64,000 nt of DNA from an uncultured Eubacteriales bacterium (GCA_934486755.1 CAKSQT010000001.1:2226-66225), one strand, 5' to 3'. Positions 18,681 to 37,253 are shown, counted from the first letter of the stretch. Notes: a model not told the origin generated them from the sequence alone. A program made the numbers and translations.

Positions 18681-20126
18681 TCACCTATCCGACTGCGATT
18701 TTACGGAGTATTCGTGCGGAGTCATTCCGACGTTTCTTTTAAACACCTGCCCGAAGTAGAGGGGATTTTGAAATCCGACCTTGTAGGACACCTCTTTGAC
18801 GGAATATCTGCCCTTCGCAAAAAGCTCTTTTGCCTTGTTTATACGAAAATCCGTCACATAATCCTTGAAATTTTTGCCTGTGTCACGCTTGAAAATACGG
18901 CTGAAATGCGCCGTGCTTATGCACAGATGGTCGCTTAGCGTATTGAGTGAAATTTCGCTGCCGTAGTTATTATTTATATATTCAATAGCCTTTGTGATAA
19001 CCGCGGAATCGCCGTTGGTGCGTTCAAACCGCAGGGAACGCATTTCCTTGAATATATCCTTAAAATCGTCCCTTATTCTCGCCGATTCAAGGCTGTGTTT
19101 TATTTTTTGCACCTTATCGCGGTCCTCGTTTACGGCAGACTTCAAAATTTCATCCGCCACGGAGCGTATTCTGTTAAAGGAAAGCGAATACATCATTATT
19201 TTTTCGGCGTCCTTCACGCCTTCGCCGTTCTTGGCAAGGGCTCGGTCCAGATAAAGCTCGGTGAAATACCTATCGTTCTGAACGTATATATCGCACACAT
19301 TGTCAAGCGGTATGCAGTTATAGGAAAATTCCGCCCGGCAGGCAATTTTAACGTTCTTTTTAAGTTCGTTTAAATAGTCGGTCATTTTGCGGTAGGAAAC
19401 GCTGTCCATTCGTGAAAAAACTATCACCAGCACCGCGTTTTTACTGTTTCCGACCACCGTAAACGCCTTGAAAAATTCATTTTCCATATCCGCGAAATCG
19501 TCCCAAATTCTATAAGGGTCATCGCTTTTAATCTCGCCCGACGCCGCGCTGAAATGCACAAGCTCGGCATTTTTTTCAAGTATTTCGGGGTCTTGATTTT
19601 CAATAGCCTTTCTGAACGCTTGAAGGCTCATTTCGCCGTAATAGTAGTTTCGGATATTTTCCTTAACGCTGTTATGGAGCATTACCATTCGGTTTGAAGT
19701 GCTGATAGCAAAGTTCGTGGTCTTTTCCATTTCGTCCATACAGGCTTTAACAAGCCTTTTAAGCTCCTCAAAGTCGATAGGCTTTGAAACAAAGCCCGAC
19801 GCTTTCAGGTTAATGGCTTTCTGCGCGTATTCAAACATTTGATAACCCGTTATGAAAATGAATTTTGTGCGCGGCGATTTTTCGGCGATATATTCCGCCA
19901 CCGCTATACCGTCAACCTTTTTCATACGTATATCGGTTATGATTATATCGACGCTGCTTGTTTTAAGCAGCTCGATAACCTCCTCGCCGTCGCTGAGAGA
20001 CGCGACAACTTCGGCATTTTCAAAGGATTCGCCTATAAACTTGCTTATACCGTTTCTTATTAACTTTTCGTCGTCACAGACGGCTATACGGTATTTATAC
20101 AAGAACAACACTCCTTTGCAAAGCAA
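18681..20126 (-). CDS. response regulator, YesN-like (N-terminal REC domain + C-terminal AraC-type HTH); likely start TTG at 20102
   Basis: 'RIAVCDDEKLIRNG...DIIITDIRMKKVDG' is the REC domain. C-terminal 'LSDHLCISTAHFSRIFKRDTGKNFKDYVTDFRINKAKELF...VGFQNPLYFGQVFKRNVGMTPHEY' is the AraC HTH. AAAGGAG lies 8 nt before the internal TTG. Confidence 0.85.
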   Translation of the reverse strand: MLCKGVLFLYKYRIAVCDDEKLIRNGISKFIGESFENAEVVASLSDGEEVIELLKTSSVDIIITDIRMKKVDGIAVAEYIAEKSPRTKFIFITGYQMFEYAQKAINLKASGFVSKPIDFEELKRLVKACMDEMEKTTNFAISTSNRMVMLHNSVKENIRNYYYGEMSLQAFRKAIENQDPEILEKNAELVHFSAASGEIKSDDPYRIWDDFADMENEFFKAFTVVGNSKNAVLVIVFSRMDSVSYRKMTDYLNELKKNVKIACRAEFSYNCIPLDNVCDIYVQNDRYFTELYLDRALAKNGEGVKDAEKIMMYSLSFNRIRSVADEILKSAVNEDRDKVQKIKHSLESARIRDDFKDIFKEMRSLRFERTNGDSAVITKAIEYINNNYGSEISLNTLSDHLCISTAHFSRIFKRDTGKNFKDYVTDFRINKAKELFAKGRYSVKEVSYKVGFQNPLYFGQVFKRNVGMTPHEYSVKSQSDR

Positions 20127-20192
20127 TTATCAATTCTATTATACAACTAAAAATGAATTTTGGGTGATGTAATTTTTGGATTTTATCACATA

Positions 20193-20218
20193 CCTCCCCT
20201 TTTTAAATAAAGGGGAGG
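20193..20218. terminator. strong 10-bp stem-loop (CCTCCCCTTT-ttaaat-AAAGGGGAGG) between the dockerin-protein gene and the response regulator gene; possible terminator/RNA-stability hairpin
   Basis: Perfect inverted repeat. A T-run follows on the plus strand (20233-20239), but the U-tract is poor on the minus-strand transcript that would terminate the 1825-aa gene. Confidence 0.35.
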
Positions 20219-20242
20219 CTTTGAGGATATTTTTTTACCGAA

Positions 20243-23200
20243 TTACAGTCCCAATATTTTTTTACGAAGCAGGTTTGCGTCGTTAGTGGTTATCTCGCCG
20301 TCGCCGTCCATATCGGCACGGGCAATCTGCCTGTCGGTAAGCTCTACCTTGCCGAGAATGCAGTAGCGGATAAGAGTAACGTCCTTAACGGTAATTCTGC
20401 CGTCGCCGTTTACGTCGCCCATATCGGTGCCGCCTGTGCGTTTATAGTCCTCCTCTGACATATAACGGAAATTATTTACAACGTTTACATACTGCTCGGA
20501 GGAAATTCGGTTCACAAGACTTGTGTTGTAGCACTCGTCGCTGTCGTAAGTGTTGCCGCGCAGGTACACGCCGTCGCTGCCGTCGGCATTTCCGAATTCT
20601 ATGCCGTATTTCGCGTCGGCGCCGAAGTAGTTGTTTTCTATAACGAAATCGCGGCAGTAGTTCTGGTTGCCCATAACACTCATATAAGAACCGTCGTTCA
20701 ATGTGTTACCCTTAAAGAGGAACGCCATTGAGGAAAGCGGGCGCAATCCGTGCATCAGCATAAACTGCCAATGACCCCAATCGGTCTGACCCTGCGCGGT
20801 ATTGCCTAAGCCCTGACCGTGCATATAAAACGGGTCGTCAAGCGTTGCGTTTACAATACTTGTGTACCAGTTTACGCCCTCATGGGTGTTAAATATCTGA
20901 CCGCCGAATTCCTTATAGGTATTGCCGTCAAACACGGTGTTGATGATAGAACCGTAGGTTCCTGCGGCGCCGCCGCTCTCATAGGAGTTATCTATGAAAT
21001 ATCCGTTAGAACGTGCTTTTTGAATGGCTATAAGGGAGTTGCGGTTCGGACGTACGGCAAAAGGTTTATCCACCTTAATGTCGGAGCCTTTGTTTTCGAC
21101 TATACGTCTTGTCTGACCGACGCCCTGACCGGATATAACATAAACGTCATATCCTACAAGTTGACCCGACTGATAGTTCTTATCTTTCAGGCGGTAGGTG
21201 ACCTCGTCAACATTGGCGGAGCCCATTATTGCGGCGTTATCGCCTATGAACTGCATTACGCCGCCGTCAAGCAGGTGGGTACCGTCGGTCGTGGTAACCT
21301 CGTGGTTATTTCTGCTCGATCCCTTAAATGCGACATTTTTAACGTATATCTCGCCGCTGAGCGCAAGTCCGCCGCCGTTTTCGGGATTGCGGCAATTTTC
21401 AACTATAAGCGCCTGCGTTGAAGCGCAGGGGCACCAGGAATAGAAATCACTGCCTTCAAAACGTGAAAATCTCCAATCTCCGTTTACGCCCTGAATACAA
21501 CCTATATCCATCCACAGTGTAAAATCGGAAAGTTGACCGTTTTCTACCCTGCCCATATCAAGATAGGCGGTGTTTCTGCCGTTTACTTTTCTGGTTTCGG
21601 CTTGTATGTCGTTAGCCATTTCAACCGTAGTGTAGCCCGAGTTCTTTATCGGGGTACCGTCACCGGAGGTGGTGGCGCCCGTTAATTCCTGCAAGTGCAG
21701 GTAAACATCCTTGATGTAAACGTTTTCGGACATCTTCTGCAAACCGCTGAACGTTTTATTTGCAAAACCGCGGAATATTGATTTATGCCTTACCCCATAG
21801 AAAGCAATTCCTTCTATCGAAACGTTGCTTGTATACTGTACGTAAGCGTCAGGCGCGTCGCCCATCATCCAAGCAGTCGGGGTATACATTATTTTGGTTC
21901 GGTTTATACCCTCGCCCTTAAACACAACGTTTTCGGGGATTGTGAGGGTGTTGGTAACACGGTAAATACCTCTCGGCAGATATACAACCCCGCCGCCGTT
22001 TTCAGCCGCGTCTATCAAAGCCGATATTATCGACGCGGTGTCGTTCGTGGTACTGTCGCCTTTGGCGCCGTATTTTTCATCCTGAACGTTAAACACGGTC
22101 TTGCTCCAAGAATCGCGCGGAGAGGCGCCCACCGTGACCTCAAACGGTTCGGACCACGCGGTATTGTCGCCGTAGCCGTTATAAACAATGAGGTTATATT
22201 TACCGTAGGGAACGTCATTCGGAACGGCGATTTTAACGGAATACTCGTCATCATAAAGCTCGGTTATTCCGAGGGTGCGTTTATACGTTCCGTTTGTTAT
22301 TACCGCAGAGAGCTTTGTTACGTCCTGAACAAGCGCCAAGTTACTGCCCTGCGCCCTTATCCAGCCGCCCTGAGTTGCGGTTTTGCCCTCATCGGAAACG
22401 GTGAATTGGATATGAGGGTTATTGATGTAGATAATAACATCGTCAACGGTAAGCCCCGTCATATTGGATATCTGACCCTTATTTACGGCTTTGAGCTTGA
22501 CCGCGTAAACGCCCTTTTGGAAGTTCTCGGGTATTATGAATTTAACCGAAGTCGCGGTCTTTTGCTTGATTTCAAGGGTCTGAGCCTGTGCGTCGTTCCA
22601 AGTCGGCTGTGCGCCGCCCTCCGCCGCCTTCGACTGGAAGGACTGCTCGCCGATATAGGAGGCGTTAGCAGGTTCAAGCGTATTGCCAATCTGCATAATC
22701 TCAACGCCGCTTACGGTCTTGCCGATGTTCTCGCCCGTAACGGTCACCATATCGCCGGGGTTCATTTCGGTATTACCCGAATAGAAGACCTGAATATCGT
22801 TAGGTGCTACGTTTACGTCATAGTCGCCCTTTTTGAAGGCTACGTCAACGTCGTCAACGTAATAGTCATAGGATTTCCAAGTGCTGGGCGTTCCGAAACC
22901 GAAAGCAAGTCTGCCGTATTCCAAAGGCATTCCGAAAATAGCGGAGAGCTTATTTTCGTGTTCGTCGGTAAACGATATTGAACCGCTTATTCCGTTATAG
23001 TTTATTGTAACGGTTATCCAATCGGACGCTGTAAGCGCTTCGTGGTCAAGGCTTCCCATCCAGCCTGAACCGCCGTTATTCGCGCCGTCCTGAATTGTGC
23101 TTGCCGCAACCATTGTGCCTGTCGCGTTATATCCAATACTTGTATAATTATTAACGTCAAGGAAAGAAGGCATAAAGCTCGTTCTGTTAAACGCGTTGCC

Positions 23201-25720
23201 TTCAAGGGTAGACGATGTAACTTTCATTCGGAAAGACACATTCGTCATAACGCCGCCGTTTGCCCACAGCTCGTCGCGTATGGTTATAAATCCGCCGTTG
23301 GCGCTTACCTTCATAACCTTATTCGTCGGATCGGTCGGGTCGGTTACAACCTCAAAGTTCTCGGTTCCCGTTATCTTATTTGTATCTTTGGTGAATTTTG
23401 CCCACTGCTTTAAGGAACCAGATGAAAAATCGTCGGTAAAATGGGTGGTATAATCACCTTCCTTACGGGGTTCAAAATAGTTATTAATTGCTTCTTTGAG
23501 TTCAAGTATATGCTCATAAAATCCCGAAAGTATCAGGCGGGACATATCGTCAAGTCCGTTATACTCCGCAACAGCTTGTTCCACAAGAGCGCTGTGGGAC
23601 GGACGCGCGTCGGCGGCGTCAAGCGCTTCAAGAGCCGCATATTTCTGCTTAAACGCCGCAGTTTCGGCATTATCGCTCAGGAAAACCGACAGTTTAGCAG
23701 CAAATCCGTTATTCAAAAGATAATCCTTTGCTTTTGAGTCTAACTTATTCCAATCGTCAAGCGCGCTTTCAAGAAGCAGTTTATCCGCGTCGGTCAGTTC
23801 TTCGGTTGTCTTGCCGATTAAAGAGGAATACTTAGCCTCAAACAGTCTTCCCATATCCTGCGAATCGTTAAAGGTTCCGCTGACGGTTATATTGTCAACG
23901 TCAACACCTGCGTTCTGGGATATTATTTTCGGAGAGAGGGTAAGACCCGTACCCTCTGGGAAAGTGTAGGTTATCTTTTTAGCGGGCAGAGTTATCTGCT
24001 TTATCTCGGTATCCTCGGACAGCTCTTTATATCCGCTCTCGGCAGTATAATGCTGATAACCGTAGAGAGTCAATATATAGCTTACCGCAACCTCGCGCTT
24101 GCTTTCCCAATTTGTGTAATCAAAGGTTGCGTCAACCTTTGTCCACATATTTCTCTGCCAATTACCGAGACGGTAAGACTCATTGGCTACCCAAGCAGGG
24201 TCCTTTACCACCGTAGCGAGTTTTGAATCGTTATCTTTCGGTGTAAATGTTATTGTCTTATCAGTCGAGACGGCTTTTACAAAATATCCGCCGTCCTGCG
24301 AACGGAAGCAGATACCCGCGCCTATGCCATTCTCCTCGTCATAAAGGAAATACAGGTTTCCCGTTCCCTTTTCAAACCTGAACGAAGCGGAAGCGTTAGC
24401 GGGCTTGTTGCCCTTAGTCCAATACTTCTGATTAACGCCGACTGCGGACTCCTTGCCGAGAGTTACATAGTTATTAACGCCGTCCTCGGTATCCTCAAAG
24501 ACATAATCCGCCGTACCCTCGGTTTTTACATATTTTTCGGTAAACCACGAATCTTCAAAATCCACGGGAGTGAATTTCGCCATATTGGTGATTACGAAAT
24601 CGCCCTTTGCGTCTATCAGCGCTTTTTCGGCGGCAAGGTTCTGTTTTGCGTATTCGCTTAACTTCTCGTAGACCGACATAGCCTCGCCGAAAAGCGCTAT
24701 ATCTTCATCGGTCATTTTTGAGGTTTCAATTTTTAACACCTCGCCGTATTTCTGCTTATAAGCGTCTGCGTCTATCTTGGCGTTTAATTTATCGACCGCG
24801 TCCTTTTGAGCGGAAACGACCTTGCTTACATTCGCTTTTTCAAGAACGGTTTTAACATTGCTGTCAAACTTATTGTAATCGTTGTAAGCCGCTGTAACAG
24901 CTTCGGTATCGGCAAGAGTAAGACTGTCAACCGCCTTATTAAGCACGGTGTTTTCGGCTATAAACTGCTTTGCGGTTACCGCATAGGACTCAATTTTAAG
25001 GTTGTCGAGCTTCATTGAGCCTGTTGACCTGAACATCGGCACAAGCGTAGTAATATCGGTTAAATTATCAAAACTTCTTGTTGCCTCGGCGGTATCGTCG
25101 CCCAAGGCAATTTGCGTTGAGGTTGACGACAGTTTCATAATATCGCCGCTTTGATATTTAAGCACGCCGTTTATTTTGAGCTTTATTGTGACCTTGGTTC
25201 CGTTATATGAAAACTCATATTCATAATGAGCCTTTTTAAACGGTTCAAGCTCGGCGTAAACGCTGTTGTCCTGCGGTACCCAGAAGCAGCCGCAGAATTT
25301 ATTTGCCCAGTCGCCGCCTATTTCCTTAACGGTGCCGTCGGTCATCGTCGCCTTTGTGGCGAACAGTCCGCCGTCGTTATTTCTGACGGTGTTGCCGACC
25401 GCGTTGCCGTTTTTATCGGTCAAGAAAAAATATCCCGTACCCGACACATTGGTGAGGTCGAACGAAATTTTGGTCGGCTTGTTGCCGCCACACCACCATT
25501 TATCAGCTACCTGAACGTCTTTATCCTTTTCAACGGTGAGTGCGCCGTCGGTTATGTTTGAAGCGTTGGTCAGCTTATCGGTCGCCGCCGAAAAGTCTTC
25601 GCTTTCTATAACGTTTATCTGCTTAAAGGTCACCGTTTCGGCGGTGGCAAACAGCGGCAGATACGTAAGGCAGAGAGCTAACGCAACAAGACACGCTGTA
25701 ATTTTATATGTTCTTTTCAT
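20243..25720 (-). CDS. 1825-aa secreted cellulosomal-type protein: novel N-terminal WxxGNKP modules (x2), helical linkers, pectate-lyase-superfamily right-handed beta-helix domain, C-terminal type I dockerin
   Basis: Signal peptide MKRTYKITACLVALALCLTYLPLFATA. 'KYGAKGDSTTNDTASIISALIDAAENGGGVVYLPRGIYRVTNTLTIP' is the hallmark start of Pectate_lyase_3/GH55/GH28-like beta-helices. The C-terminal 'DVNGDGRITVKDVTLIRYCILG...ADMDGDGEITTNDANLLRKKILGL' is a canonical duplicated Ca-binding dockerin. Only 15 nt separate it from the upstream cassette-2 gene. Confidence 0.8.
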   Translation of the reverse strand: MKRTYKITACLVALALCLTYLPLFATAETVTFKQINVIESEDFSAATDKLTNASNITDGALTVEKDKDVQVADKWWCGGNKPTKISFDLTNVSGTGYFFLTDKNGNAVGNTVRNNDGGLFATKATMTDGTVKEIGGDWANKFCGCFWVPQDNSVYAELEPFKKAHYEYEFSYNGTKVTIKLKINGVLKYQSGDIMKLSSTSTQIALGDDTAEATRSFDNLTDITTLVPMFRSTGSMKLDNLKIESYAVTAKQFIAENTVLNKAVDSLTLADTEAVTAAYNDYNKFDSNVKTVLEKANVSKVVSAQKDAVDKLNAKIDADAYKQKYGEVLKIETSKMTDEDIALFGEAMSVYEKLSEYAKQNLAAEKALIDAKGDFVITNMAKFTPVDFEDSWFTEKYVKTEGTADYVFEDTEDGVNNYVTLGKESAVGVNQKYWTKGNKPANASASFRFEKGTGNLYFLYDEENGIGAGICFRSQDGGYFVKAVSTDKTITFTPKDNDSKLATVVKDPAWVANESYRLGNWQRNMWTKVDATFDYTNWESKREVAVSYILTLYGYQHYTAESGYKELSEDTEIKQITLPAKKITYTFPEGTGLTLSPKIISQNAGVDVDNITVSGTFNDSQDMGRLFEAKYSSLIGKTTEELTDADKLLLESALDDWNKLDSKAKDYLLNNGFAAKLSVFLSDNAETAAFKQKYAALEALDAADARPSHSALVEQAVAEYNGLDDMSRLILSGFYEHILELKEAINNYFEPRKEGDYTTHFTDDFSSGSLKQWAKFTKDTNKITGTENFEVVTDPTDPTNKVMKVSANGGFITIRDELWANGGVMTNVSFRMKVTSSTLEGNAFNRTSFMPSFLDVNNYTSIGYNATGTMVAASTIQDGANNGGSGWMGSLDHEALTASDWITVTINYNGISGSISFTDEHENKLSAIFGMPLEYGRLAFGFGTPSTWKSYDYYVDDVDVAFKKGDYDVNVAPNDIQVFYSGNTEMNPGDMVTVTGENIGKTVSGVEIMQIGNTLEPANASYIGEQSFQSKAAEGGAQPTWNDAQAQTLEIKQKTATSVKFIIPENFQKGVYAVKLKAVNKGQISNMTGLTVDDVIIYINNPHIQFTVSDEGKTATQGGWIRAQGSNLALVQDVTKLSAVITNGTYKRTLGITELYDDEYSVKIAVPNDVPYGKYNLIVYNGYGDNTAWSEPFEVTVGASPRDSWSKTVFNVQDEKYGAKGDSTTNDTASIISALIDAAENGGGVVYLPRGIYRVTNTLTIPENVVFKGEGINRTKIMYTPTAWMMGDAPDAYVQYTSNVSIEGIAFYGVRHKSIFRGFANKTFSGLQKMSENVYIKDVYLHLQELTGATTSGDGTPIKNSGYTTVEMANDIQAETRKVNGRNTAYLDMGRVENGQLSDFTLWMDIGCIQGVNGDWRFSRFEGSDFYSWCPCASTQALIVENCRNPENGGGLALSGEIYVKNVAFKGSSRNNHEVTTTDGTHLLDGGVMQFIGDNAAIMGSANVDEVTYRLKDKNYQSGQLVGYDVYVISGQGVGQTRRIVENKGSDIKVDKPFAVRPNRNSLIAIQKARSNGYFIDNSYESGGAAGTYGSIINTVFDGNTYKEFGGQIFNTHEGVNWYTSIVNATLDDPFYMHGQGLGNTAQGQTDWGHWQFMLMHGLRPLSSMAFLFKGNTLNDGSYMSVMGNQNYCRDFVIENNYFGADAKYGIEFGNADGSDGVYLRGNTYDSDECYNTSLVNRISSEQYVNVVNNFRYMSEEDYKRTGGTDMGDVNGDGRITVKDVTLIRYCILGKVELTDRQIARADMDGDGEITTNDANLLRKKILGL

Positions 25721-25735
25721 TGCATTATCCCTCCG

Positions 25736-27445
25736 TTAATAGAATGAAATCTTGTTATCAATATAATATTGATAAAGTTCCTTGCTTATCGGCTCGTTCC
25801 AACGTCCGCCGATGAAGTTGTCAAAATCTCCGCCGAGCGGGTCTTCGAGCTTGCGAACCGTTATATTATCCACATTAACGGTAACATTTGAGCCGTATAA
25901 GCCGATATTGCCGTATGCGGGTATTTCAATGCGGTTTGCGTTGGTATTCTCGCTTAAATCGTCAACATAGGAAATTACTTCCTCGTCATTCCAATAAATC
26001 TTTATTGTGTTGTCAAGCAGATCCATACGCAGATTGTTCTTCTTGCCCGAAAGTATAAGGTCGTATGCCTCGGGATCCTCGGCGTCAAGATAGTTGAGCG
26101 TTACGGTTTTAAGCGCCGTCTGATAAGCCTTTGATTTATCGGTCATCATATTAGCGTAACCGAGGGTGAGCGTTTGGATTATCTTGGTGTGCTTGACCTG
26201 CGTTCCGTCAACCTCTTCGACAACGGTTTGGGTTTTGCTTGAAAGAACCGCCGAATAGGACGATATGCCGTGCATTTTGTTGTATTTAAGTCTGCCGATA
26301 AGTCCGAATGTGTTGGTGTTTGTAAGCGAAATATCGCTTGGGAAGGTAATATCGCACGAAACGGAATAATCGGTCCAGTCGGTACTGCCCGCAAACCAAA
26401 GCCCGTCGCTCACTGGGGTTATAGCAAGATAGCGGTTGGTCTTATCCTTGTTAAGCTCTACCGTTGTTTCGGAAGCGGTGGTCTGCCATATCGGGTTTTC
26501 AACGCTTTCCTCGCCGTCGAACATTGAACCGTCGGTAAAGGTCTCTCTTAACAGAATATCCTCTGTCGGCGGAAGGTCTGGCGGCAGGGTTATCTCGCTT
26601 GACGAGGAGGACGAAGAAGACGATGACGGATTATCGGGGTCTTCGTCAAGCTGATAGCCTTCATAAGCCGTTACCTCAACGCTGAAATCGCTGAAAACGG
26701 CGGTTGCAAGGTCGCTCCTGTCGGTCGAAGAAGCGCCCAAGCCTATGTAAATATCCTTATCGAACTTCACAAACACACCCGACTGTATGGTGACCCATGA
26801 CTTAGGATTGGACGGGGTGAAGTTATATTCGGATTTAACCTTTCCTACGCCCTTGCCCGTTGTAACAAAGGTCATACGGAGCCTTATTCCGTTATCGTAT
26901 CTCGGCGGCTCCTTATAGCTAAGGTTGGAGTTACAAACCTTGCCTGTTTCGGTTCTTGAAACCATAAGCATAGCCTCGGGACGTGCGTGCGCAAGCGCCA
27001 TTGAGGCTCTGCCGTTAAGGCTTGAACGCAGGAGTATGCCTGCCGAGGCGGTTGTGGCAAACGCCGACCAGGAATTAAGCGTTACCTCCGCCGTAACGGT
27101 CGCCTCGTCGTCAACACGGTAGTTGAAGGGTATTTTAAGGTATGCGTAGTCAACCTGATCGCCGTCATACCAGCAGGCAAAGCTGTTGGTTTTTATTGTG
27201 TAGCGGCGGCTTGATTCGTCGCCCGATTCCTCATAGCTTCCGTCGGAGTCATCGAACACCCTTTTTGCGCCGTCGATTGTGGCATAATCCGCCTTTACCT
27301 TGGCAAATTCAAGCTGCGGGTTTACGGATTTTGATACCGTAACCATATCCGCTTTTACATTCATAGAGATGATAAGCGCCGACGCGCAGAGTATAGCCGC
27401 TAACGCAACGCAGATTATCTTTTTTGTTCTTGAAACGTTTGTCAC
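25736..27445 (-). CDS. two-domain beta-sandwich protein with Ser-rich linker (LamG/DUF1080-like C-terminal domain); paralog of 821-2554
   Basis: 569 aa with an N-terminal signal/anchor (IICVALAAILCASALIISMNV) and an SSSSSSSSSSE linker. The C-terminus 'GGRWNEPISKELYQYYIDN' parallels 'GGGWEDPIPDTVKDWTND' of the paralog. Confidence 0.5.
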   Translation of the reverse strand: MTNVSRTKKIICVALAAILCASALIISMNVKADMVTVSKSVNPQLEFAKVKADYATIDGAKRVFDDSDGSYEESGDESSRRYTIKTNSFACWYDGDQVDYAYLKIPFNYRVDDEATVTAEVTLNSWSAFATTASAGILLRSSLNGRASMALAHARPEAMLMVSRTETGKVCNSNLSYKEPPRYDNGIRLRMTFVTTGKGVGKVKSEYNFTPSNPKSWVTIQSGVFVKFDKDIYIGLGASSTDRSDLATAVFSDFSVEVTAYEGYQLDEDPDNPSSSSSSSSSSEITLPPDLPPTEDILLRETFTDGSMFDGEESVENPIWQTTASETTVELNKDKTNRYLAITPVSDGLWFAGSTDWTDYSVSCDITFPSDISLTNTNTFGLIGRLKYNKMHGISSYSAVLSSKTQTVVEEVDGTQVKHTKIIQTLTLGYANMMTDKSKAYQTALKTVTLNYLDAEDPEAYDLILSGKKNNLRMDLLDNTIKIYWNDEEVISYVDDLSENTNANRIEIPAYGNIGLYGSNVTVNVDNITVRKLEDPLGGDFDNFIGGRWNEPISKELYQYYIDNKISFY

Positions 27446-29154
27446 AGTACCTCACCTCCGATTTGCTCGTATTTTTTCTGTTTTAAGTACTGCCACGCGA
27501 GAACCGCGGGGAACGCCAGCATAAGCACCGAAGCCGCAAGAATAATGCACAGAATGAGAATTATCTGCGGAACCTCGCTTATAACGGTTTTGGTCACCGT
27601 TTTTGCGCTGTCGCTGTTTGTATCGTTCTTGACCGCCGTATTTGCGGTCGATGAGCCGCTGTTATTATTACTGCCCGAAGACGCCGACGACGATGTTGCC
27701 TGCGACGGCTTAGTTACGGTTGAAGAATTGCCTTTTGAGTCGCCCGACGGGACGGTAAGAGTTGCTATTTTATCAAGCAGTTTTTCAAGCAGGCTCCTTC
27801 GCATTGCGAGCTTTTCACGCAGTGCCTCGGGCTGGGCGTCAATATCCGCAATGGCAAGCTCAATAGCGGTCTTGTCATAAACGGTTACGGTACGCTGGGT
27901 TATGGCAAGCACCTTTGCGTGCTTTTTAAGAAACTCCTGCTGCTGTTCAAGCAGAGCCTGCTCTGCCTCATCCTCGGCGGTGTATTTATTGACATAACCC
28001 ATAAGCTCGCTCAAATGCTCGCGCTCGCTTTTGCCCAATTCCTGCGCTATGTCGGACATAAGGTCAAACGAGGTTATGGCTTCAACCACCATTGAGCCGT
28101 ATTCCTTGTAGTTGCCCGCTATATCGTTTTCGGTGGCTTCAAGCACCGTTTTGAAGTTCTCCTTAAACTCCTCGTATTCCTGAACCGCCTTTGAATACTT
28201 GCGCGCGTCGGCTTCAAGCTGTTTTATTTCAGCCTTTAACGAGTTTATCTTTTCTTTAACCGAGCTGTCCATACGGGCAAGCGCGGCGTCGCTCATCAAA
28301 CCGAGTTCGTCTGACGCGGCGGTAACCTCGGTCTTGTCGTTAAGCGTTACCTGACCCTCGGGAATTGCGAGTATGCGTTTATATTTTTCAACAAACGCGG
28401 CAATCGCCTTGTCTATTTCGGCGTAACCCGCGTTTTCCTGCGCCTTGTAATACCTTGTAGGCGCGGTGCGGTAGTATTCGTACAAATCGGGATAGGAATT
28501 AAAGAACGCCTTTATCTTTTCGTTTGTATACTTAGTGAATATCGCCTTTGCGGCGTCAATATCCGCCTTGGAGTCGGGATATTTTATTGTTTCGAGCTTT
28601 CTGTAAGCCGCAAGCTCATCTTCGGTAAACGTTATAGCGTTAATTACCACATTCACACCTGCCGCCGATATATCGCTTGTTATCTTTTTATTCTCGCTAT
28701 CATACATAACAGCCGAAGTAATCTTAAACGCGCCGTTTATGTTGCTTTTGACCGTTTCGGCGGTGAAAAGCATATTGAATATATTGCCGTTTAAAACGGT
28801 GTTTTGCGCGGTGGTATCCCATATCACCGTCACGGTTCCGCTTTTCGTATTGCAGGCGGACTGCGCAACGCCGTCCCTGTCCGCAATCAGACAGTCAACG
28901 CTGTTTTCCGCAAACGTGAATAAATCAGGGTCATAGCTTAGTTTAAGCTGTAAAGAGCTTATGGCTTTGCTGTTCTGCACCGAAACCGAAACAGTCAGCT
29001 TTTCGCCGGGAGAAACGCTTGACACGGCGGAACTTCCCTTGAAAGCGCCCACCGAAAGCACGGCGTCCGACGCGGCGTTTACGCCGACGGTGCCGAGCAA
29101 TACGGAGGATACGAGAAATACCGTCAGAATCAGCGAAATAATCCTGTTTTTCAT
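27442..29154 (-). CDS. type I membrane protein with N-terminal cohesin-like domain, helical stalk and C-terminal TM anchor; paralog of 2544-4265
   Basis: 570 aa with a signal peptide. 'GEKLTVSVSVQNSKAISSLQLKLSYDPDLFTF...GNIFNMLFTAETV' is cohesin-like. A long Glu/Lys-rich helical region and an S/N-rich tract precede the C-terminal TM (IILILCIILAASVLMLAFPAVLAW). It overlaps the downstream gene by 4 nt. Confidence 0.5.
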   Translation of the reverse strand: MKNRIISLILTVFLVSSVLLGTVGVNAASDAVLSVGAFKGSSAVSSVSPGEKLTVSVSVQNSKAISSLQLKLSYDPDLFTFAENSVDCLIADRDGVAQSACNTKSGTVTVIWDTTAQNTVLNGNIFNMLFTAETVKSNINGAFKITSAVMYDSENKKITSDISAAGVNVVINAITFTEDELAAYRKLETIKYPDSKADIDAAKAIFTKYTNEKIKAFFNSYPDLYEYYRTAPTRYYKAQENAGYAEIDKAIAAFVEKYKRILAIPEGQVTLNDKTEVTAASDELGLMSDAALARMDSSVKEKINSLKAEIKQLEADARKYSKAVQEYEEFKENFKTVLEATENDIAGNYKEYGSMVVEAITSFDLMSDIAQELGKSEREHLSELMGYVNKYTAEDEAEQALLEQQQEFLKKHAKVLAITQRTVTVYDKTAIELAIADIDAQPEALREKLAMRRSLLEKLLDKIATLTVPSGDSKGNSSTVTKPSQATSSSASSGSNNNSGSSTANTAVKNDTNSDSAKTVTKTVISEVPQIILILCIILAASVLMLAFPAVLAWQYLKQKKYEQIGGEVL

Positions 29155-29209
29155 ACCCTTTTCCTTTCTTCGGACCGACAGAGGATTTCCGTCGGCCTAA
29201 ATTTGCCTA

Positions 29210-29234
29210 CCGATGGCGGCTTTGCCGCCATCGG
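29210..29234. other. perfect 10-bp GC-rich stem-loop (CCGATGGCGG-cttt g-CCGCCATCGG) in the 94-nt gap downstream of the SBP gene
   Basis: Intra-operon hairpin without a U-tract. This is typical of SBP-gene 3' stabilisers/partial terminators in ABC-transporter operons. Confidence 0.4.
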
Positions 29235-29248
29235 TAACTGTGTTTATA

Positions 29249-30814
29249 CTATTTCTTGGACTTGATATATTCGTCCGCCTGTTTCTGGAATTCCTTGATT
29301 ACGTCGTCAATTCCTGCCGACTTGATTTTAGAATTCATTTCGTCGTAGGTGCTTTGATAATCCTTTATAACACCTGTGGTAAGCTGAGCTTCAAGCTCTT
29401 TATTTGTTGAGATGATGTTGCTCATTTTAATATCAACGGGGGTCTGGTCGAAGCAGTAACCGTACATTACGCCCTTCTTAACCTTGGGCAGCTTGTTTTC
29501 AAAATAATCCTTACCGTAATCAATGGTTGTCTGGTCATACGGATAAACCGCCGAGAACTTGAACATATTTCCTACCTGCCAGTTGGGTATGCCGTATTTT
29601 GAAGAAGAAGTTCCCTGACCTACATAGTCGAACGCCTTAACAACGTTATCCGATGTTCTCTCATAATGGGTGCCCTCAATGCCGTATGCCAGCATATCGA
29701 GAATTTCTTTGCCCTCGTCGGTGCGGCAAAGTTCTATAAACTTCATCGCTCTTGCGGGGTTTTCGGCGGTTGAAGGAATTGTAAGATAGGTCATAAGCGA
29801 GCCTACGTTGTGGCTTGAAAGCATATCGTTTTCGGGGTTGTCAAGAACTACAACATACGGGTCGGATGTGCCTGCCATAGGAGCAATAACCCAATTTTCG
29901 TCCGCTCCCTTGCGTGAGCCGCGAAGACCGGCTATCTGTCCGGCATAATCAGATGTTCCGAAAGAGGTTCCCGTAAGAACGTCTTTGCTTATGTATCCGT
30001 CCTGGTACCATTTGTTCATCCACTTTATCCAGAGTTTAAATTCTTCGGTCTCGTGGAAGTCGATTATCTTTACCTTGTCGGAGGTCTGGTCAAAACAGAT
30101 ATTGGAGTTTTCGCCGCCGATAAAGGTGTATCCTCTTTTTGCGATGTTGTTTGAATAAAGCTCATCTGTGTTAAGCTGAATGAGCTTGCCCGCCGCCTTT
30201 GCCGCGCTCAAACCTTGGTCAAGCACCTTATAGAAGCTTTCATCGGTATGCGGATTTGCGTGCGTCGCCGCAACGATAGCCGCGGTATCAAAATAGCTGA
30301 ATACAGCCTGTGATATTTTAAGCGAGGTGGTTTCCTTTATATGATACTGGATATTCGGTATGCCGTAGAGCTTGCCGTTGTATTCGCCTGTATAATACTG
30401 GTCGGCGTAAATTCCCTCGCGTTCCTCCTTTACGGTAGGAGCGTATGTATCAATAAGGTCGTCAAGCTCAATGAATGAGTTTTTGGTTATCTCTTCAAGC
30501 AGGGAAAGGTTTAAGCCAAGGCTCGCTATATCAAAGCTGGTGTCGCCCGCCATCCAAAGCTGCCACTTATCGCTCAAACTGTCACATATAATTTCGAGCT
30601 TGGTGTTGGGGAGCTTCTTTTCCACGAGTTTATTAAGCTCGTCGTTCACCATGCTGAGGTCTTTTTGCGGAGAGAAGTCGAAAACGAAGCGCAGAGTGAC
30701 CTCCTTGCTTTCATCATCGGTGAATTTTCCGCCAGATTTACTGCCGCAGCCCGCAAAGCAGGAAACAAGCAGCGCGATCGCCATTAAGATGCTTAATAAT
30801 CTGAATTTTTTCAT
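29249..30814 (-). CDS. ABC transporter substrate-binding lipoprotein, LplA/CUT1-like (cassette 2)
   Basis: 521 aa with a lipobox (LVSCFAGCGS). Paralog of 4299-5936. Confidence 0.8.
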   Translation of the reverse strand: MKKFRLLSILMAIALLVSCFAGCGSKSGGKFTDDESKEVTLRFVFDFSPQKDLSMVNDELNKLVEKKLPNTKLEIICDSLSDKWQLWMAGDTSFDIASLGLNLSLLEEITKNSFIELDDLIDTYAPTVKEEREGIYADQYYTGEYNGKLYGIPNIQYHIKETTSLKISQAVFSYFDTAAIVAATHANPHTDESFYKVLDQGLSAAKAAGKLIQLNTDELYSNNIAKRGYTFIGGENSNICFDQTSDKVKIIDFHETEEFKLWIKWMNKWYQDGYISKDVLTGTSFGTSDYAGQIAGLRGSRKGADENWVIAPMAGTSDPYVVVLDNPENDMLSSHNVGSLMTYLTIPSTAENPARAMKFIELCRTDEGKEILDMLAYGIEGTHYERTSDNVVKAFDYVGQGTSSSKYGIPNWQVGNMFKFSAVYPYDQTTIDYGKDYFENKLPKVKKGVMYGYCFDQTPVDIKMSNIISTNKELEAQLTTGVIKDYQSTYDEMNSKIKSAGIDDVIKEFQKQADEYIKSKK

Positions 30815-30856
30815 TGTAATACTCCAATCTGCCGAAAACGGCGGTTTTATAATTTT

Positions 30857-31783
30857 TTATCCCTTTACGGAACCTATCATCATTCCCTTTGAGTAATACT
30901 TCTGGAAGAACGGGAACGCAATCATCATCGGAAGCGCCGCGAGAACGCATATCGCAAATTTAAGCGTTTCATTCGGCAGGGTTTTTATCATATCGAGGTA
31001 GCCTGGTATATTCTGCATTGTCTGCTTTATCATATCCGACTCTTGCAGAACCTTTTGAAGCATATACTGCAAGGTGTAAAGGTCCTTGTTGGTGATATAG
31101 TAAAGACTTGTTTCGTAATCGTTCCAACGTCCGAGCAGTCCAAAGAGATAATAGGTTGCCAAAATCGGTTTTGAAAGCGGAATTACTATTTTAACAAGTA
31201 TCTGGAATTCGCTTGCACCGTCGAGCGACGCCGACTCTATAAGCGATGTCGGAAGTTGCTTAAAGAAGGTTCTGAAAATGAAAATCGTGTATGCGCCTAT
31301 CGTCCAGTTGAAGAAATATACCCACATATTATCCTGCAAGCCGAGATATTGTGTGCGGACTATGTATCCTGGAACAAGTCCGCCGCTGAAAAACATTGTA
31401 ACTATCAAATAGGTGTTTACAAACTTCTTATAAGCAAATCCCTCGCGCGCGAGTGCGTATCCGCACATTGCCATAACAAAAACGCTTATGAGCGTAACGC
31501 CGAAGGCGTAAATCAATGTTACCTTGTACGCGTTTATCATAGTCATAGGAGAAGCGAAGACAAATTCAAACGCCGTTAAAACAAATTTTTTCGGTATAAA
31601 CCTGAATCCGTATTCAAGCACGTCTGCCTCAGACGAGAAGGCTACCGAAAACAAGAGCAGCATCGGCACTATAAATATCACCGACAAAAGTATGAAGAAG
31701 GCGTAAATAAAAACTTTATAGTTTAAAATCTTTTTACGCAGGGGACTTTTTTTGCGAATGGTTTTATCAGACATTTTCGGCAC
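30857..31783 (-). CDS. sugar ABC transporter permease, LplC-like (cassette 2)
   Basis: 308 aa with the EAA loop 'ESASLDGASEFQILVKIVIPLSKP'. Paralog of 5937-6809. Confidence 0.8.
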   Translation of the reverse strand: MPKMSDKTIRKKSPLRKKILNYKVFIYAFFILLSVIFIVPMLLLFSVAFSSEADVLEYGFRFIPKKFVLTAFEFVFASPMTMINAYKVTLIYAFGVTLISVFVMAMCGYALAREGFAYKKFVNTYLIVTMFFSGGLVPGYIVRTQYLGLQDNMWVYFFNWTIGAYTIFIFRTFFKQLPTSLIESASLDGASEFQILVKIVIPLSKPILATYYLFGLLGRWNDYETSLYYITNKDLYTLQYMLQKVLQESDMIKQTMQNIPGYLDMIKTLPNETLKFAICVLAALPMMIAFPFFQKYYSKGMMIGSVKG

Positions 31784-31789
31784 CTCCTT

Positions 31790-32749
31790 TTAAAGTAATG
31801 CGCTTTCTTCGTCCAGTTTTTTGACGAAGAAGTTTGAAAGCATAAGGCAGATAAATCCTACAACCGACTGGAACAGACCTACCGCCGCCGTTACGCCCAT
31901 TTTGCCCGATTTAAGACCTCTGAGCAAATAGGTCGGGAGTATATCGGTAACGCTGTAAAGCGCCGCGGAGTCCATCGGAACCTGATAGAAAAGGCCGAGG
32001 TTGCCGCCGAGTATGCCCGCCATTGAGGTTATTATCATAAACGCGATTATCGGCTTGATAGAGGGCAGAGAAATATGTATCACCTGCTTGAAGTGCGACG
32101 CGCCGTCAAGCTCCGCCGCCTCGAAAAGCTGGTGGTCTATTCCCATTAAAGAAGCATAATACAAAAGACAACCCATACCGATAGTCTGCCATTCCTGCGT
32201 TACAAGGAGTATAAGCGGCCAGTATTTAGGCTCGTTATACCACGCTATCGCCTCGCCGCCGAGATTTGTTATTACCGAATTTAAAATTCCGCTTTTATAG
32301 TTAAGGAACGCATAAACGATATACGCCATAATAACCCACGAAATATTACTCGGCATAGCCATTGTCGTCTGGAAGAATTTAAGCGCGCCCCTGCTGTTTA
32401 TCTCATACATAAGGAGGGCGATTATTATTCCGAGCAGCATAGAAACCAACTGGAAAAGTATGTGGTATCCTATTGTGTTGCGGATGACCCTGAACGCGTC
32501 GGACGATTTAAAGAAGTATTCAAAATTTTCAAAACCGACAAACGGGGAAGCAAATTTATCCCTGTAATTGAAGTTTTGGAAAGCCACGACCACGCCGAAA
32601 ATAGGCAGATAGTGGAACACAAGCAGCCATAACAACGCAGGAAGCGCCAACAAAAGCAAGGGCAGGCTTGTTATGTACTTGTTAGGTTTTTTCTGTAACG
32701 GTGATTTTTCACCCATTTTGCTCATCCCCCGTATTTTCCTCGTCCCCAT
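31790..32749 (-). CDS. sugar ABC transporter permease, LplB-like (cassette 2); true start probably 32725 or 32716
   Basis: 319-aa ORF-track model whose first 8-11 codons overlap the GLUG gene stop (32709-32711). Internal ATGs at 32725 (MSKMGEK) and 32716 (MGEKSPL) each have an RBS. Paralog of 6822-7763. Confidence 0.8.
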   Translation of the reverse strand: MGTRKIRGMSKMGEKSPLQKKPNKYITSLPLLLLALPALLWLLVFHYLPIFGVVVAFQNFNYRDKFASPFVGFENFEYFFKSSDAFRVIRNTIGYHILFQLVSMLLGIIIALLMYEINSRGALKFFQTTMAMPSNISWVIMAYIVYAFLNYKSGILNSVITNLGGEAIAWYNEPKYWPLILLVTQEWQTIGMGCLLYYASLMGIDHQLFEAAELDGASHFKQVIHISLPSIKPIIAFMIITSMAGILGGNLGLFYQVPMDSAALYSVTDILPTYLLRGLKSGKMGVTAAVGLFQSVVGFICLMLSNFFVKKLDEESALL

Positions 32750-34526
32750 CTGTTATATCCACTCCTGTAAGAGCCCTTTTCTTTCTGAAAAAGTAGATAC
32801 ACAGCAGGACATTCATTGCAAGTATTACCGCTATAAGCGCAATAAGTATTATTACTATGACTTTTTCCGATGTTGTAAGCGCGCGGCTGCTCACACTCTG
32901 GTCAGCCATATCCTTTACCGCCTCGTAAGCCTCTTTGAGCTTGGAGACGATCTTGGAAGAAATAAACGTGTTGTGCGCCTCGTCAAGGAATGTGTAATCG
33001 TCGTATATTTCAAGAACATTGTCCCTGTCCGCCGCTTTCAGCTTGCCGACGTCAGGGAGCGCCTTTACCCTTTTTACAATGTCGGGTATTATGAGCAGAC
33101 ACATTGAGTCGTAGCACTTTGTCATCTTAGCGACCAGCTCGGCGGGTATCTCGTTGTATTCCGCGTCGGTTAGCTTATCAAAGGCACGTTTTACCTTCTT
33201 TACCTCGTCCTTGTCTTTAAGGGTGAGTTTTTCCGCCTCGGGAAGTTTTTCTATTTCGGCAACCAGTTCGCTTACGCTTATTACCGTTTCTTCGGAGGAA
33301 TCAGAGCTTCCCTGTTCCTGTGAAGTTCCGTCCGTACCTGTGCTTTCGCTCGGTACGACCTCGGAAACAGCGCCGGGCGTATAAGCCGCGCCGTCGGTAA
33401 TATAGGCAAAGTTTGCCTTGACCGATTCTGCCGCCGCCGTTACCTGCGCCGCGGAAACCTTTGCAAACTTAGGCTGGTTTCCGTTGCCCGCAAAGCCGCA
33501 GTCGTTTGCTGTATACATAGCCGACGCGTCGCCGATTTCGGAAGCGCTTTTAATTTGAACGTTTGAATAACACTTTGTTAGCGTTACCGAAGCGTCCTTA
33601 CAGCTGTTTGTAAAAGGCGCCAAGTCGGAAGTGCCGATACAAACGGCGTTTTCAATTTCCGCGCCTTCTCCTATGCTGCCCGTAAATCCGCCGCAGGAGC
33701 TGAGGTCGGAAGTATACGTAAATACGTACGAACCCTCGGCAAGAACGTTTTTAACGCTGCCGCCTGATATACTGCCGATAAACAGACCCTGATTCCAGAA
33801 GCCTGCTCCCTTTATTTCAACATTTGAATAGCAGTTCTCAACGATACAGTTGCTGACGCGCCCCACAAGTCCGCCCGTGTTATTTGCGCGGGAAGTAACG
33901 CTGCCCGTAACGCCGCAACCTGAAATATAAGTATCCTCGGCATAGGTTACCAAAACGGCTGTACCCATTTCATCTCCCTGACCGGGATTTAACGAATGGT
34001 CGGGGTTCATTTGGTGCTGACCCAAAACGTTGCTTGTTATCTTCGCGCCCAAAACATAAATATTTTCAAGTGACGCGCTTGTTGTAGCACCGAACAGAGC
34101 CGCCTCCCACTTGTTATTATTCTTAACATAGTTAGCGTAACCGCTGTTGTTCTTAACCTGATGGGCGGCACCGTTATTGTTGTCAATTTTCAAGTTTTTA
34201 ATTATGTATTTCGGCGTTCCGTCGCTGTTAAGTTCGCAGGTGAAACTGCCCGTAAACGGCTTTGCCATAGTTCCTATCGGCTGAAACGCCGAGGAAAACG
34301 ACGACATATCCACCGTGTTTGACAGCTTGTAGTGAGCGGAAAGATTGTTTCTCATTCCGTCAAGCTGTTCGGGTGTTTCCACCAAATACGGCGACTCTTT
34401 TGTACCGTTGCCGTTATACGCCACAGCCGCGCTTGCCGAAAACGACGCCGTGAAAATGCTTAAAACAATGCAGATGCACAACGCCAAGGAAAGTGAACTG
34501 ACTGTCGCTTTTTGTTTATAATGCAT
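32709..34526 (-). CDS. GLUG-motif beta-helix surface protein with signal peptide and C-terminal TM anchor (cassette 2)
   Basis: 605 aa. 'ESPYLVETPEQLDGMRNNLSAHYKLSNTVDMS..PIGTMAKPFTGSFTCELNSDG..IIKNLKID' parallels the 7779-9401 protein. A C-terminal coiled region is followed by the TM VIVIILIALIAVILAMNVLLCIYFF and an acidic tail. Confidence 0.5.
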   Translation of the reverse strand: MHYKQKATVSSLSLALCICIVLSIFTASFSASAAVAYNGNGTKESPYLVETPEQLDGMRNNLSAHYKLSNTVDMSSFSSAFQPIGTMAKPFTGSFTCELNSDGTPKYIIKNLKIDNNNGAAHQVKNNSGYANYVKNNNKWEAALFGATTSASLENIYVLGAKITSNVLGQHQMNPDHSLNPGQGDEMGTAVLVTYAEDTYISGCGVTGSVTSRANNTGGLVGRVSNCIVENCYSNVEIKGAGFWNQGLFIGSISGGSVKNVLAEGSYVFTYTSDLSSCGGFTGSIGEGAEIENAVCIGTSDLAPFTNSCKDASVTLTKCYSNVQIKSASEIGDASAMYTANDCGFAGNGNQPKFAKVSAAQVTAAAESVKANFAYITDGAAYTPGAVSEVVPSESTGTDGTSQEQGSSDSSEETVISVSELVAEIEKLPEAEKLTLKDKDEVKKVKRAFDKLTDAEYNEIPAELVAKMTKCYDSMCLLIIPDIVKRVKALPDVGKLKAADRDNVLEIYDDYTFLDEAHNTFISSKIVSKLKEAYEAVKDMADQSVSSRALTTSEKVIVIILIALIAVILAMNVLLCIYFFRKKRALTGVDITDGDEENTGDEQNG

Positions 34527-34679: not shown

Positions 34680-34708
34680 TTGAAAAATACCCCAAGGGGG
34701 TATATAAT
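34680..34708 (+). promoter_or_regulatory. sigma-A promoter (TTGAAA-17-TATAAT) with embedded CsoR operator palindrome ATACCCCAAGGGGGTAT
   Basis: -35 box at 34680-34685, -10 box at 34703-34708. The GC palindrome TACCCC-AAG-GGGGTA (34687-34703) matches CsoR-box architecture. It lies 23 nt upstream of the likely copA TTG start. Confidence 0.65.
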
Positions 34709-36947: not shown

Positions 36948-37243
36948 GCGAATGTAACTGCTGCGCCAAGAAAAAGCACCGAAACGAGGAGGAGTACCGC
37001 ACCCTTATAAACCGCCTTAACCGAATTGAGGGTCAGGTCAGGGGAATTAAAGGAATGGTTGAGAACGACGCTTACTGCACCGATATACTTACTCAGGTAT
37101 CGGCAATCCAAGCGGCTCTCAACGCATTCAACAAACAGCTACTTTCAAACCACATACACACCTGTGTGTTTGAGGGAATAAAAAACGGCGATAGCGAGGT
37201 CGTTGACGAACTCGTGACCGCCATACAAAAATTGATGAAATGA
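36944..37243 (+). CDS. csoR: copper-sensing transcriptional repressor CsoR (DUF156/RcnR-CsoR family)
   Basis: 99 aa. '[37 protein letters not shown]' with the conserved C..H..C metal-ligand pattern (YCTD, H, C). Its start overlaps the copA stop by 4 nt. Confidence 0.8.
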
Positions 37244-37253
37244 GGAAACAAAA

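Follow-up and report, generated by a model that had tools for sequence, protein, structure and literature searches.

The subject of this analysis is a seven-gene module, designated cassette 2 (W2), which lies on the minus strand between positions 34526 and 20243 of a 64,000-nt stretch of DNA (GCA_934486755.1 CAKSQT010000001.1:2226-66225; "the window", i.e. the whole stretch that was analysed) and which encodes a membrane-anchored cohesin, a secreted dockerin protein and the components of a sugar importer. The window derives from a gut metagenome assembly (ENA scaffold_543, 77 kb) and is chromosomal, with recA, cysS and the ribosomal protein L1 gene present. A metagenome-assembled genome (MAG) from a Hadza gut sample, labelled "uncultured Eubacteriales bacterium", contains a 95% identical locus, and goat and roe deer rectum yielded more distant relatives of the module, in MAGs labelled "Clostridia bacterium". 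In every source record the module proteins are named only "hypothetical protein", and no other name was found. The genes of cassette 2 and the parts of its cohesin and dockerin proteins are as follows (ORF, open reading frame; ABC, ATP-binding cassette):

32709-34526 (-), gene 1, GLUG surface protein, 605 aa, with signal peptide and C-terminal transmembrane anchor
31790-32716 (-), gene 2, ABC permease, LplB/MalF-like, CUT1 type, BPD_transp_1 (ORF 31790-32749)
30857-31774 (-), gene 3, ABC permease, LplC/MalG-like, BPD_transp_1 (ORF 30857-31783)
29249-30814 (-), gene 4, large lipoprotein solute-binding protein, LplA-like, with DUF3502 C-terminus
27442-29154 (-), gene 5, cohesin-stalk-anchor protein, 570 aa, with signal peptide, cohesin, stalk, linker and transmembrane helix
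28630-29073 (-), cohesin of gene 5, aa 28-175
27757-28629 (-), helical stalk of gene 5, aa 176-466
27463-27567 (-), transmembrane helix of gene 5, aa 530-564, preceded by a Ser/Asn-rich linker
25736-27445 (-), gene 6, LamG-like protein, 569 aa, secreted or signal-anchored, two jelly-roll (DUF1080/LamG-like) halves and a Ser-rich linker
20243-25720 (-), gene 7, secreted "giant", 1825 aa, with LamG-like and helical N-terminal modules, Ig-like region, beta-helix and dockerin
20426-22138 (-), right-handed beta-helix of the giant, aa about 1195-1765
20252-20419 (-), type I dockerin of the giant, aa 1768-1823, at the extreme C-terminus

The coordinates, the common strand and the gaps of at most 94 nt given in the original prediction are all borne out by the ORFs, which for the remaining five genes have the limits listed, and by the gene calls of the source contig, from which spacings and permease starts were taken. 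Gene 1 overlaps the first permease gene by 8 nt, the two permease genes are separated by 15 nt, and 42 nt and 94 nt lie between permease 2 and the binding protein and between the binding protein and the cohesin protein, respectively. The cohesin and LamG-like genes overlap by 4 nt, the LamG-like gene is followed after 15 nt by the giant, and about 140 nt separate the giant from a response regulator gene. The 15-nt gap before the giant (CGGAGGGATAATGCA) carries a strong GGAGG ribosome-binding site 8 nt before the ATG, and no secondary structure was predicted in it.

Gene 5 matches Pfam Cohesin (PF00963) with 40.1 bits (cut-off 24.1) over aa 44-169, and its paralog in a second cassette of the window (cassette 1, W1; see below) with 39.5 bits. 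Pfam detected a single cohesin in gene 5 and neither a carbohydrate-binding module (CBM) nor any other domain. The AlphaFold2 model, built from seven sequences, comprises an all-beta domain (aa 32-152; predicted local distance difference test score, pLDDT, 60-83, i.e. moderate confidence), a helical region (aa 178-465; pLDDT about 90), a disordered Ser/Asn-rich stretch (aa 471-529) and the transmembrane helix (aa 530-564). When this model was compared with the PDB by Foldseek, the best 50 matches were all cohesins, with 9-19% identity, probability 1.0 and target TM-scores of 0.3-0.73. A cohesin fold, i.e. a flattened beta-sandwich, is thus supported by a model of moderate confidence. A PDB search with the single sequence found no relative, and a word-index homolog search with an alignment returned the same 31 proteins as the single-sequence query.

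An exhaustive search with a family profile yielded 1173 representatives at E<=1e-3, of which 138 reached E<=1e-30. Among the best 150 family matches, about 100 are 540-600 aa long and colinear across their full length, and the family comprises at least 85 clusters at 50% identity. Pfam Cohesin is matched singly by 56 of the 85 full-length representatives, with no other family recurring, while 29 miss it at E<=0.01. Judged by these matches, the cohesin-stalk-anchor architecture is a real family. In a comparison of the 85-member profile with the PDB, type I cohesins scored best (E 2e-12 to 2e-6), among them those of Clostridium acetobutylicum CipA (2e-12) and C. cellulolyticum CipC (8e-12) and of the C. 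thermocellum single-cohesin anchors OlpC (2e-7) and OlpA (2e-6); type II cohesins gave weaker values (E 3e-5 to 5e-3). The family is thus closest to type I by profile, whereas Foldseek with the single gene 5 model places type II cohesins first. The stalk is built from a helical repeat of ~65 aa (27757-28629, minus strand) for which no Pfam model exists. The repeat is also present in the much larger proteins P0054, P0064 and P0170, in up to 24 copies (P0054, 2661 aa), and, among the giants, in those of two related modules only (L008 and L009, described below), where it was detectable only by profile.

The giant encoded by gene 7 ends in a Dockerin_1 domain (Pfam, 47 bits; cut-off 22.9). Both calcium-loop motifs quoted in the original prediction, DVNGDGRIT and DMDGDGEIT, are present at the C-terminus, and the calcium loops (DxNxDGxxxxxD) DVNGDGRITVKD and DMDGDGEITTND each lead into a helix-like stretch, as is required of the two segments, of roughly 22 residues each, in a type I dockerin. 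The best PDB match is the type I dockerin of C. thermocellum Xyn10B (1ohz_B, E 9e-8). In front of the dockerin, PF12708, a family of glycan enzymes (GH28-related, GH55, GH110-like and others; GH, glycoside hydrolase) characterised by a right-handed parallel beta-helix and a GDGxTDDT-like motif at its N-terminus, is matched with 49.8 bits, above the cut-off, over only 74 aa (aa 1210-1283); the giant of module L009 matches the entire profile. All significant PDB matches of a structural model of this region are right-handed beta-helix glycan enzymes, including GH110 alpha-galactosidases, alginate epimerases, RbmB lyase, GH28, GH87 and phage tailspikes, at TM-scores of only 0.2-0.4. A homolog search returned few relatives, mostly short matches to an N-terminal motif. 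The beta-helix fold class is supported by this modelling, and the domain is a putative glycan enzyme. Of its earlier description as a pectin/glucan-active beta-helix, the fold class stood, while activity on pectin or glucan was not established. BLASTP comparisons of the giant with the cohesin protein and with the LamG-like protein gave nothing significant.

Comparison with an 82% identical ortholog of the locus revealed that the dockerin of the giant is 85%, its beta-helix 73% and its N-terminal region 69% identical, and that in gene 5 the cohesin is 82% and the stalk 88% identical. These values indicate that cohesin and dockerin are both under constraint.

The window contains a second, colinear set of paralogous genes, cassette 1, the two cassettes lying within 35 kb (assignments by Pfam; giant by translation):

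821-9401 (-), cassette 1, paralogs of genes 1-6
7779-9401 (-), GLUG protein
6822-7763 and 5937-6809 (-), permeases
4299-5918 (-), binding protein
2544-4265 (-), cohesin-anchor protein
821-2554 (-), LamG-like protein
1-808 (-), N-terminus of a giant, running off the left window edge

The genes of the two cassettes stand in the same order and are pairwise 22-48% identical. Cassette 2 had been singled out for the dockerin gene that follows it; it is not special in this respect, for a homologous dockerin giant begins, at about position 808, 12 nt after the LamG-like gene of cassette 1 too. This gene escaped the original prediction because it runs off the left edge of the window. On the window's contig the cassette 1 giant is cut at 1011 aa, and this part shares 31% identity with a stretch of the 1825-aa giant that comprises its Ig-like region and the first part of its beta-helix. 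The complete protein is found on contig L013 of the same species, which was located by exact look-up with the cassette 1 permease, whereas look-ups with the LamG-like and binding proteins matched only the cut contig. It has 1501 aa, agrees with the cut copy in 1008 of 1011 residues, and matches Dockerin_1 with 38 bits and, weakly, PF12708.

All seven genes recur in identical order in five of five divergent modules, namely the two cassettes of the window and the modules L003, L008 and L009, whose components are 25-51% identical and diverge congruently; the cohesin-anchor, LamG-like and giant proteins are only 25-33% identical between modules. The cohesin proteins of L003, L008 and L009 are 27-33% identical to that of cassette 2, and their giants, of 1262, 1928 and 2013 aa, each carry PF12708 and Dockerin_1. 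Across the five modules the giants (1262-2013 aa) vary greatly in their N-terminal parts, while beta-helix and dockerin are always kept. The gap between the LamG-like gene and the giant is 12-15 nt in all five, and in four of them the end of the cohesin gene extends 4-11 nt into the LamG-like gene; for L003 the ORF list gives a 4-nt overlap and the contig gene call begins 17 nt later. The five dockerins have a common first segment, GDVNxDGxxxxKDxTLxR, and differ at several helix positions. Predicted topologies are likewise uniform: in each module the GLUG and cohesin proteins combine a signal peptide with one transmembrane helix at the C-terminus, the binding protein is of the lipoprotein type and a single hydrophobic segment lies at the N-terminus of the LamG-like protein. 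The giants have a signal peptide only, with no transmembrane helix, LPXTG motif or surface-layer homology (SLH) domain detected (the latter by Pfam). Therefore, the dockerin protein is the only one without an anchor of its own, and the sole cohesin resides on a membrane-anchored protein.

Some features of these proteins and loci vary. A tail of 60-90 aa, rich in Ser/Gly or in Asn, follows the dockerin in four of the five giants (L003:9909-13697, L008:13279-19065, L009:12266-18307, L013:11234-15739), and only the giant of cassette 2 ends in its dockerin; in the cassette 1 giant a short Ala/Glu/Lys-rich, possibly helical segment follows. The modules from goat and roe deer carry an extra ORF of 225-241 aa between the GLUG gene and permease 1 (L008:5700-6425, L009:4757-5434), which is absent from both window cassettes and in L008 has no Pfam match. 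Flanking genes differ as well: cassette 1 has GH10 upstream and GH125 downstream (9614-10987, minus strand; L013:15803-16105), L008 and L009 have a GH29 fucosidase downstream (L008:19386-20129, L009:18560-19552), and L003 has GH94 upstream (L003:62-1348). These different glycoside hydrolase neighbours suggest that the modules are specialised for different glycans.

Two further proteins of the window are related to parts of the giant. The gene at 13014-16325 (minus strand), flanked by two 43-aa ORFs in the contig gene calls, encodes a secreted protein of 1103 aa that matches neither Pfam nor NCBIfam models. Over its first ~434 aa it shows 32% identity (E 2e-46) to the N-terminal ~397 aa of the giant, which makes it a paralog of the giant's N-terminal part that lacks beta-helix and dockerin. 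A third dockerin protein is encoded at 55441-58536 (minus strand; 1031 aa; BspA-type leucine-rich repeats and Dockerin_1), with no cohesin nearby, and adjoins an FG-GAP repeat protein and an OmpR/HisKA two-component system (53762-55066, 51548-53760). The dockerin of this leucine-rich repeat (LRR) protein is devoid of the first-helix pattern common to the module dockerins. P0033, a beta-helix-dockerin relative from elsewhere, lies on a short contig on which no module was seen.

The remaining genes of cassette 2 encode an importer and two surface proteins. The permeases are ordinary CUT1 sugar permeases; their NCBIfam matches (GlcT/UgpA/MalF for gene 2, GlcU/MalG/UgpE for gene 3) are all below cut-off. 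Gene 4 has a lipobox-like N-terminus (...VSCFAGCGSK) and scores 64.6 bits with DUF3502 (Pfam), and its C-terminal half only matches the solute-binding proteins 5suo, 5swa and 5mlt in the PDB (E about 1e-16). Two BPD_transp_1 permeases and a lipoprotein binding protein, as expected of a CUT1/Lpl-type importer, are thus present, but its ATP-binding subunit is not: Pfam detected no ABC ATPase gene in cassette 1 or cassette 2. Firmicutes often use a shared MsmX-type ATPase encoded elsewhere. As the block lacks this gene, it is not fully the self-contained unit it had been taken for. Gene 1 has hydrophobic segments at aa 7-25 and aa 556-574 and is 36-39% identical to the first genes of the four other modules. 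Gene 6 has an N-terminal hydrophobic segment, is 28% identical over its full length to its cassette 1 paralog, and found no match in a sequence search of the PDB. Most of the domain labels assigned earlier were confirmed by Pfam, but GLUG proved marginal for gene 1 (21.1 bits; cut-off 20.5) and "LamG-like" is a weakly supported label for gene 6, because 3keto-disac_hyd/DUF1080 (PF06439) reaches 20.4 bits and so remains below its cut-off of 26.8.

Signals that may govern transcription, and the regulatory genes next to the module, are listed below:

29155-29248 (-), intergenic region between genes 4 and 5 that folds into two stem-loops lacking a U-tract (-42.4 kcal/mol minimum free energy; z-score -6.5)
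20192-20219 (-), stem-loop after the stop codon of the giant, a possible weak terminator; -21.2 kcal/mol, z-score -3.95, no clean U-tract
18681-20102 (-), response regulator, YesN type, REC and AraC-type helix-turn-helix (HTH) domains by Pfam; ORF to 20126
16993-18675 (-), histidine kinase, YesM type, PF06580 His_kinase and HATPase_c

Upstream of 34526 only weak promoter-like matches were found, and the module diverges there from a copper-ATPase operon (34680-37500, plus strand) whose products are CopA, which contains an HMA domain, a repressor of the CsoR type and a small HMA protein. The 82% ortholog has a GH2 gene and chromate-transporter genes in place of this operon, which puts the left boundary of the module at about 34527. 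Within the 94-nt gap, the first stem-loop (29208-29236) is a perfect hairpin of 13-14 bp that persists, its loop changed from AAA to TTT, in the 95% and 82% orthologs, while the second is specific to this strain. The corresponding spacing in the other modules is only 9-33 nt. In our view the hairpin is an RNA element peculiar to this lineage, serving to stabilise or to attenuate the transcript, and is no proof of separate operons. A promoter-like site (TTTAAA-16-TAAAAT, with an upstream TG, i.e. an extended -10) precedes the regulator gene at 20207-20180 (minus strand). This site and the hairpin after the giant indicate that the two-component system is probably a transcription unit of its own. 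Its assignment to the YesM/YesN type and its position downstream of the module hold, with PF06580 and HATPase_c in the kinase and REC and an AraC-type HTH in the regulator; its proposed role as the module's regulator is narrowed by the fact that the linkage is confined to close orthologs. The regulator gene adjoins the module in the 82% ortholog, and in L008 a histidine-kinase ORF lies upstream of the module.

Taken together, we consider it likely that cassette 2 is one copy of a glycan-utilization module conserved among uncultured gut Clostridia, a Gram-positive polysaccharide utilization locus (PUL) in which a secreted enzyme is tethered by a cohesin-dockerin pair encoded in the same operon. 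The candidate cognate pair beside an Lpl-type importer, as originally proposed, is strengthened by its recurrence in five of five modules, by the lack of an anchor in the giant and by the proximity to type I of the dockerin and, by profile, of the cohesin. The putative calcium-dependent binding of the dockerin by the cohesin is supported by genetic linkage in all five modules. Upon induction, probably via the adjacent YesM/YesN-type system, the seven genes would be transcribed from a promoter upstream of 34526. The cohesin protein would be exported and kept in the membrane by its C-terminal helix, with the ~290-aa helical stalk and the Ser-rich linker raising the N-terminal cohesin above the membrane. 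The 1825-aa giant, secreted and anchorless, would plug its C-terminal type I dockerin into this cohesin in a calcium-dependent manner, by which its putative glycan-cleaving beta-helix and its LamG-like and Ig-like modules would be held at the cell surface. Released oligosaccharides may then be captured by the DUF3502 lipoprotein and imported through the two permeases, powered by a shared ATPase encoded elsewhere. The GLUG-anchor and double DUF1080-like proteins would act as accessory surface components, probably as glycan binders. More tentatively, such modules may form a widespread class of transporter operons in uncultured gut and rumen Clostridia, each with its own orthogonal cohesin-dockerin pair, so that a cell would possess several private degrade-bind-import stations, each for a different glycan; we regard this broader proposal as possible, with the balance tipped slightly against it.

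Several observations weigh against a dedicated enzyme tether of this kind. The AlphaFold2 model of the beta-helix, derived from a 14-sequence alignment, is poor (pLDDT 52.6; predicted TM-score, pTM, 0.57), and the beta-helix comparisons gave no catalytic or CAZy-like family. Since the modules share an ancestor, their conservation reflects long retention under selection and not repeated independent assembly, and synteny is counted in five modules, scans of metagenome contigs for further module relatives having found none. Transcripts could be terminated or processed at the strong, conserved hairpin behind the binding-protein gene, and only in close orthologs does the two-component system lie beside the module. 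Finally, since the window has two cohesins and a third dockerin protein (55441-58536), more than one pairing of cohesins with dockerins is conceivable.

In one alternative, the membrane cohesins are shared, promiscuous anchors that dock many dockerin proteins, including both giants and the LRR-dockerin protein, adjacency then reflecting co-regulation. The first segment common to the dockerins makes cross-binding between modules conceivable, the LRR-dockerin protein has no cohesin nearby, and Sca2, a single-cohesin surface protein of Ruminococcus bromii, binds the dockerins of several amylases and of non-amylase proteins (PMC4611034). However, a stoichiometry of one cohesin to one dockerin is kept in every module across deep divergence, this genome's two cohesins share only 22-25% identity, their dockerins differ at several helix positions, and the LRR-protein dockerin lacks the module motif, so that we regard a shared anchor as unlikely. 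We hold it to be very unlikely that the cohesin-like domain is no dockerin receptor at all but a structural head or a glycan or protein binder, with the dockerin of the giant binding a scaffoldin elsewhere or having a role unrelated to cohesins. The domain is indeed very divergent, as seen from the failed single-sequence PDB search, the low identity to solved cohesins, the moderate model confidence and the third or so of family members below the Pfam Cohesin threshold, and Peer et al. are said to have found in 2009 that cohesin-like and dockerin-like modules are common outside cellulosomes and often have no known partner. Yet each of the five modules links a cohesin gene with a dockerin gene, the family profile matches type I cohesins that bind dockerins (E about 1e-12 to 1e-6), and the giant has no other means of attachment to the cell.

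A further possibility, which appears somewhat unlikely, is that the locus comprises two expression units, the hairpin acting as terminator, attenuator or processing site, with strong expression of the GLUG, permease and binding-protein genes and with the cohesin, LamG-like and giant genes expressed weakly or from a promoter of their own. The stability of the two stem-loops in the 94-nt gap and the conservation of the first, with its loop changed and its stem kept, are compatible with such a split, and hairpins behind a binding-protein gene commonly increase the amount of binding protein relative to permease. Against it, neither stem-loop is followed by a U-tract, a promoter scan detected no strong minus-strand promoter-like site in the gap, and the other modules have far shorter spacings at this junction. 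A split operon would in any case alter expression levels and not the functional link between the genes. A classical cellulosome was also considered and rejected, because only one cohesin, and neither a CBM nor an SLH or sortase anchor, is present.

The tether that we favour resembles known single-cohesin systems in that a cell-bound cohesin captures the dockerin of a secreted enzyme, as in OlpA and OlpC of C. thermocellum, ScaE of R. flavefaciens and Sca2 of R. bromii. OlpA (3ul4) and OlpC (4dh2) are among the profile and fold matches of gene 5, and Sca2 is a 534-aa single-cohesin anchor (PMC4611034). These anchors are attached to the wall by SLH modules or sortase, whereas here a C-terminal transmembrane helix lies under a long stalk, and their genes are neither inside sugar ABC-transporter operons nor beside a single dedicated cargo gene. 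Glycoside hydrolases of C. perfringens, such as GH84 NagJ with its cohesin, provide a precedent for cohesin-dockerin interactions outside cellulose degradation, in a gut Firmicute acting on complex glycans, and C. perfringens cohesins (2jh2, 2o4e, 2w1n, 2ozn) are among the structural and profile matches of gene 5. In that case the cohesin is carried by a secreted enzyme and links enzymes together, and is not part of a membrane anchor in a transporter operon.

With regard to the transport genes, the module is similar to B. subtilis LplABC, which likewise has two CUT1 permeases and a large DUF3502 lipoprotein but no ATPase gene, and to YesM/YesN, with a PF06580 kinase and a regulator with REC and AraC HTH domains; the names used here come from these B. 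subtilis systems. To our knowledge, the B. subtilis LplABC and YesM-YesN loci contain no cohesin, dockerin, GLUG or DUF1080 genes. Gram-positive PULs (gpPULs) are minimally defined by a co-located degrading enzyme, a transporter (mostly ABC) and a regulator (PMC5320581). Compared to those of Roseburia and Eubacterium rectale, transporter and regulator are present here and the enzyme is putative, assigned by its beta-helix fold class. In the cases seen, modules of the same genome also differ in their flanking glycoside hydrolase genes, a further resemblance to gpPULs. As described, gpPULs do not tether their enzymes by cohesin-dockerin interaction, dockerin being mentioned once (PMC5320581), and they have no GLUG-anchor, cohesin-anchor or double DUF1080 genes. 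The Sus-like PULs of Bacteroidota follow the same logic, in that surface enzyme, glycan binders, importer and sensor are encoded together and the enzyme is kept beside the transporter. However, there is no homologous component, no SusC/SusD and no outer membrane here, and a protein-protein plug would take the place of lipidation.

In the searchable full-text literature, which is incomplete, no account of a cohesin encoded within an ABC-transporter operon, or of the present set of genes, was found, nor any paper that combines cohesin, dockerin and GLUG. The parts are all of known kinds; what appears to be new is their combination, i.e. an anchor made of membrane helix and stalk, one-to-one pairing within a transporter operon and recurrence as a family. 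Apart from the pair itself, the module draws attention to three unstudied surface families, namely the GLUG-anchor, the double DUF1080 protein and the stalk repeat, and to a candidate beta-helix enzyme family in human and ruminant gut bacteria. The cohesin-dockerin pairs, if orthogonal, may possibly also be of use in protein engineering. In Gram-positive gut bacteria the coupling of glycan breakdown to uptake is much less clear than in Bacteroides. If our interpretation is correct, cellulosome-type plugs would have been reused as one-to-one tethers at transporters, outside cellulose degradation, and on the broader proposal these modules would represent a Gram-positive counterpart of the Bacteroides surface complexes, made from cellulosome parts.

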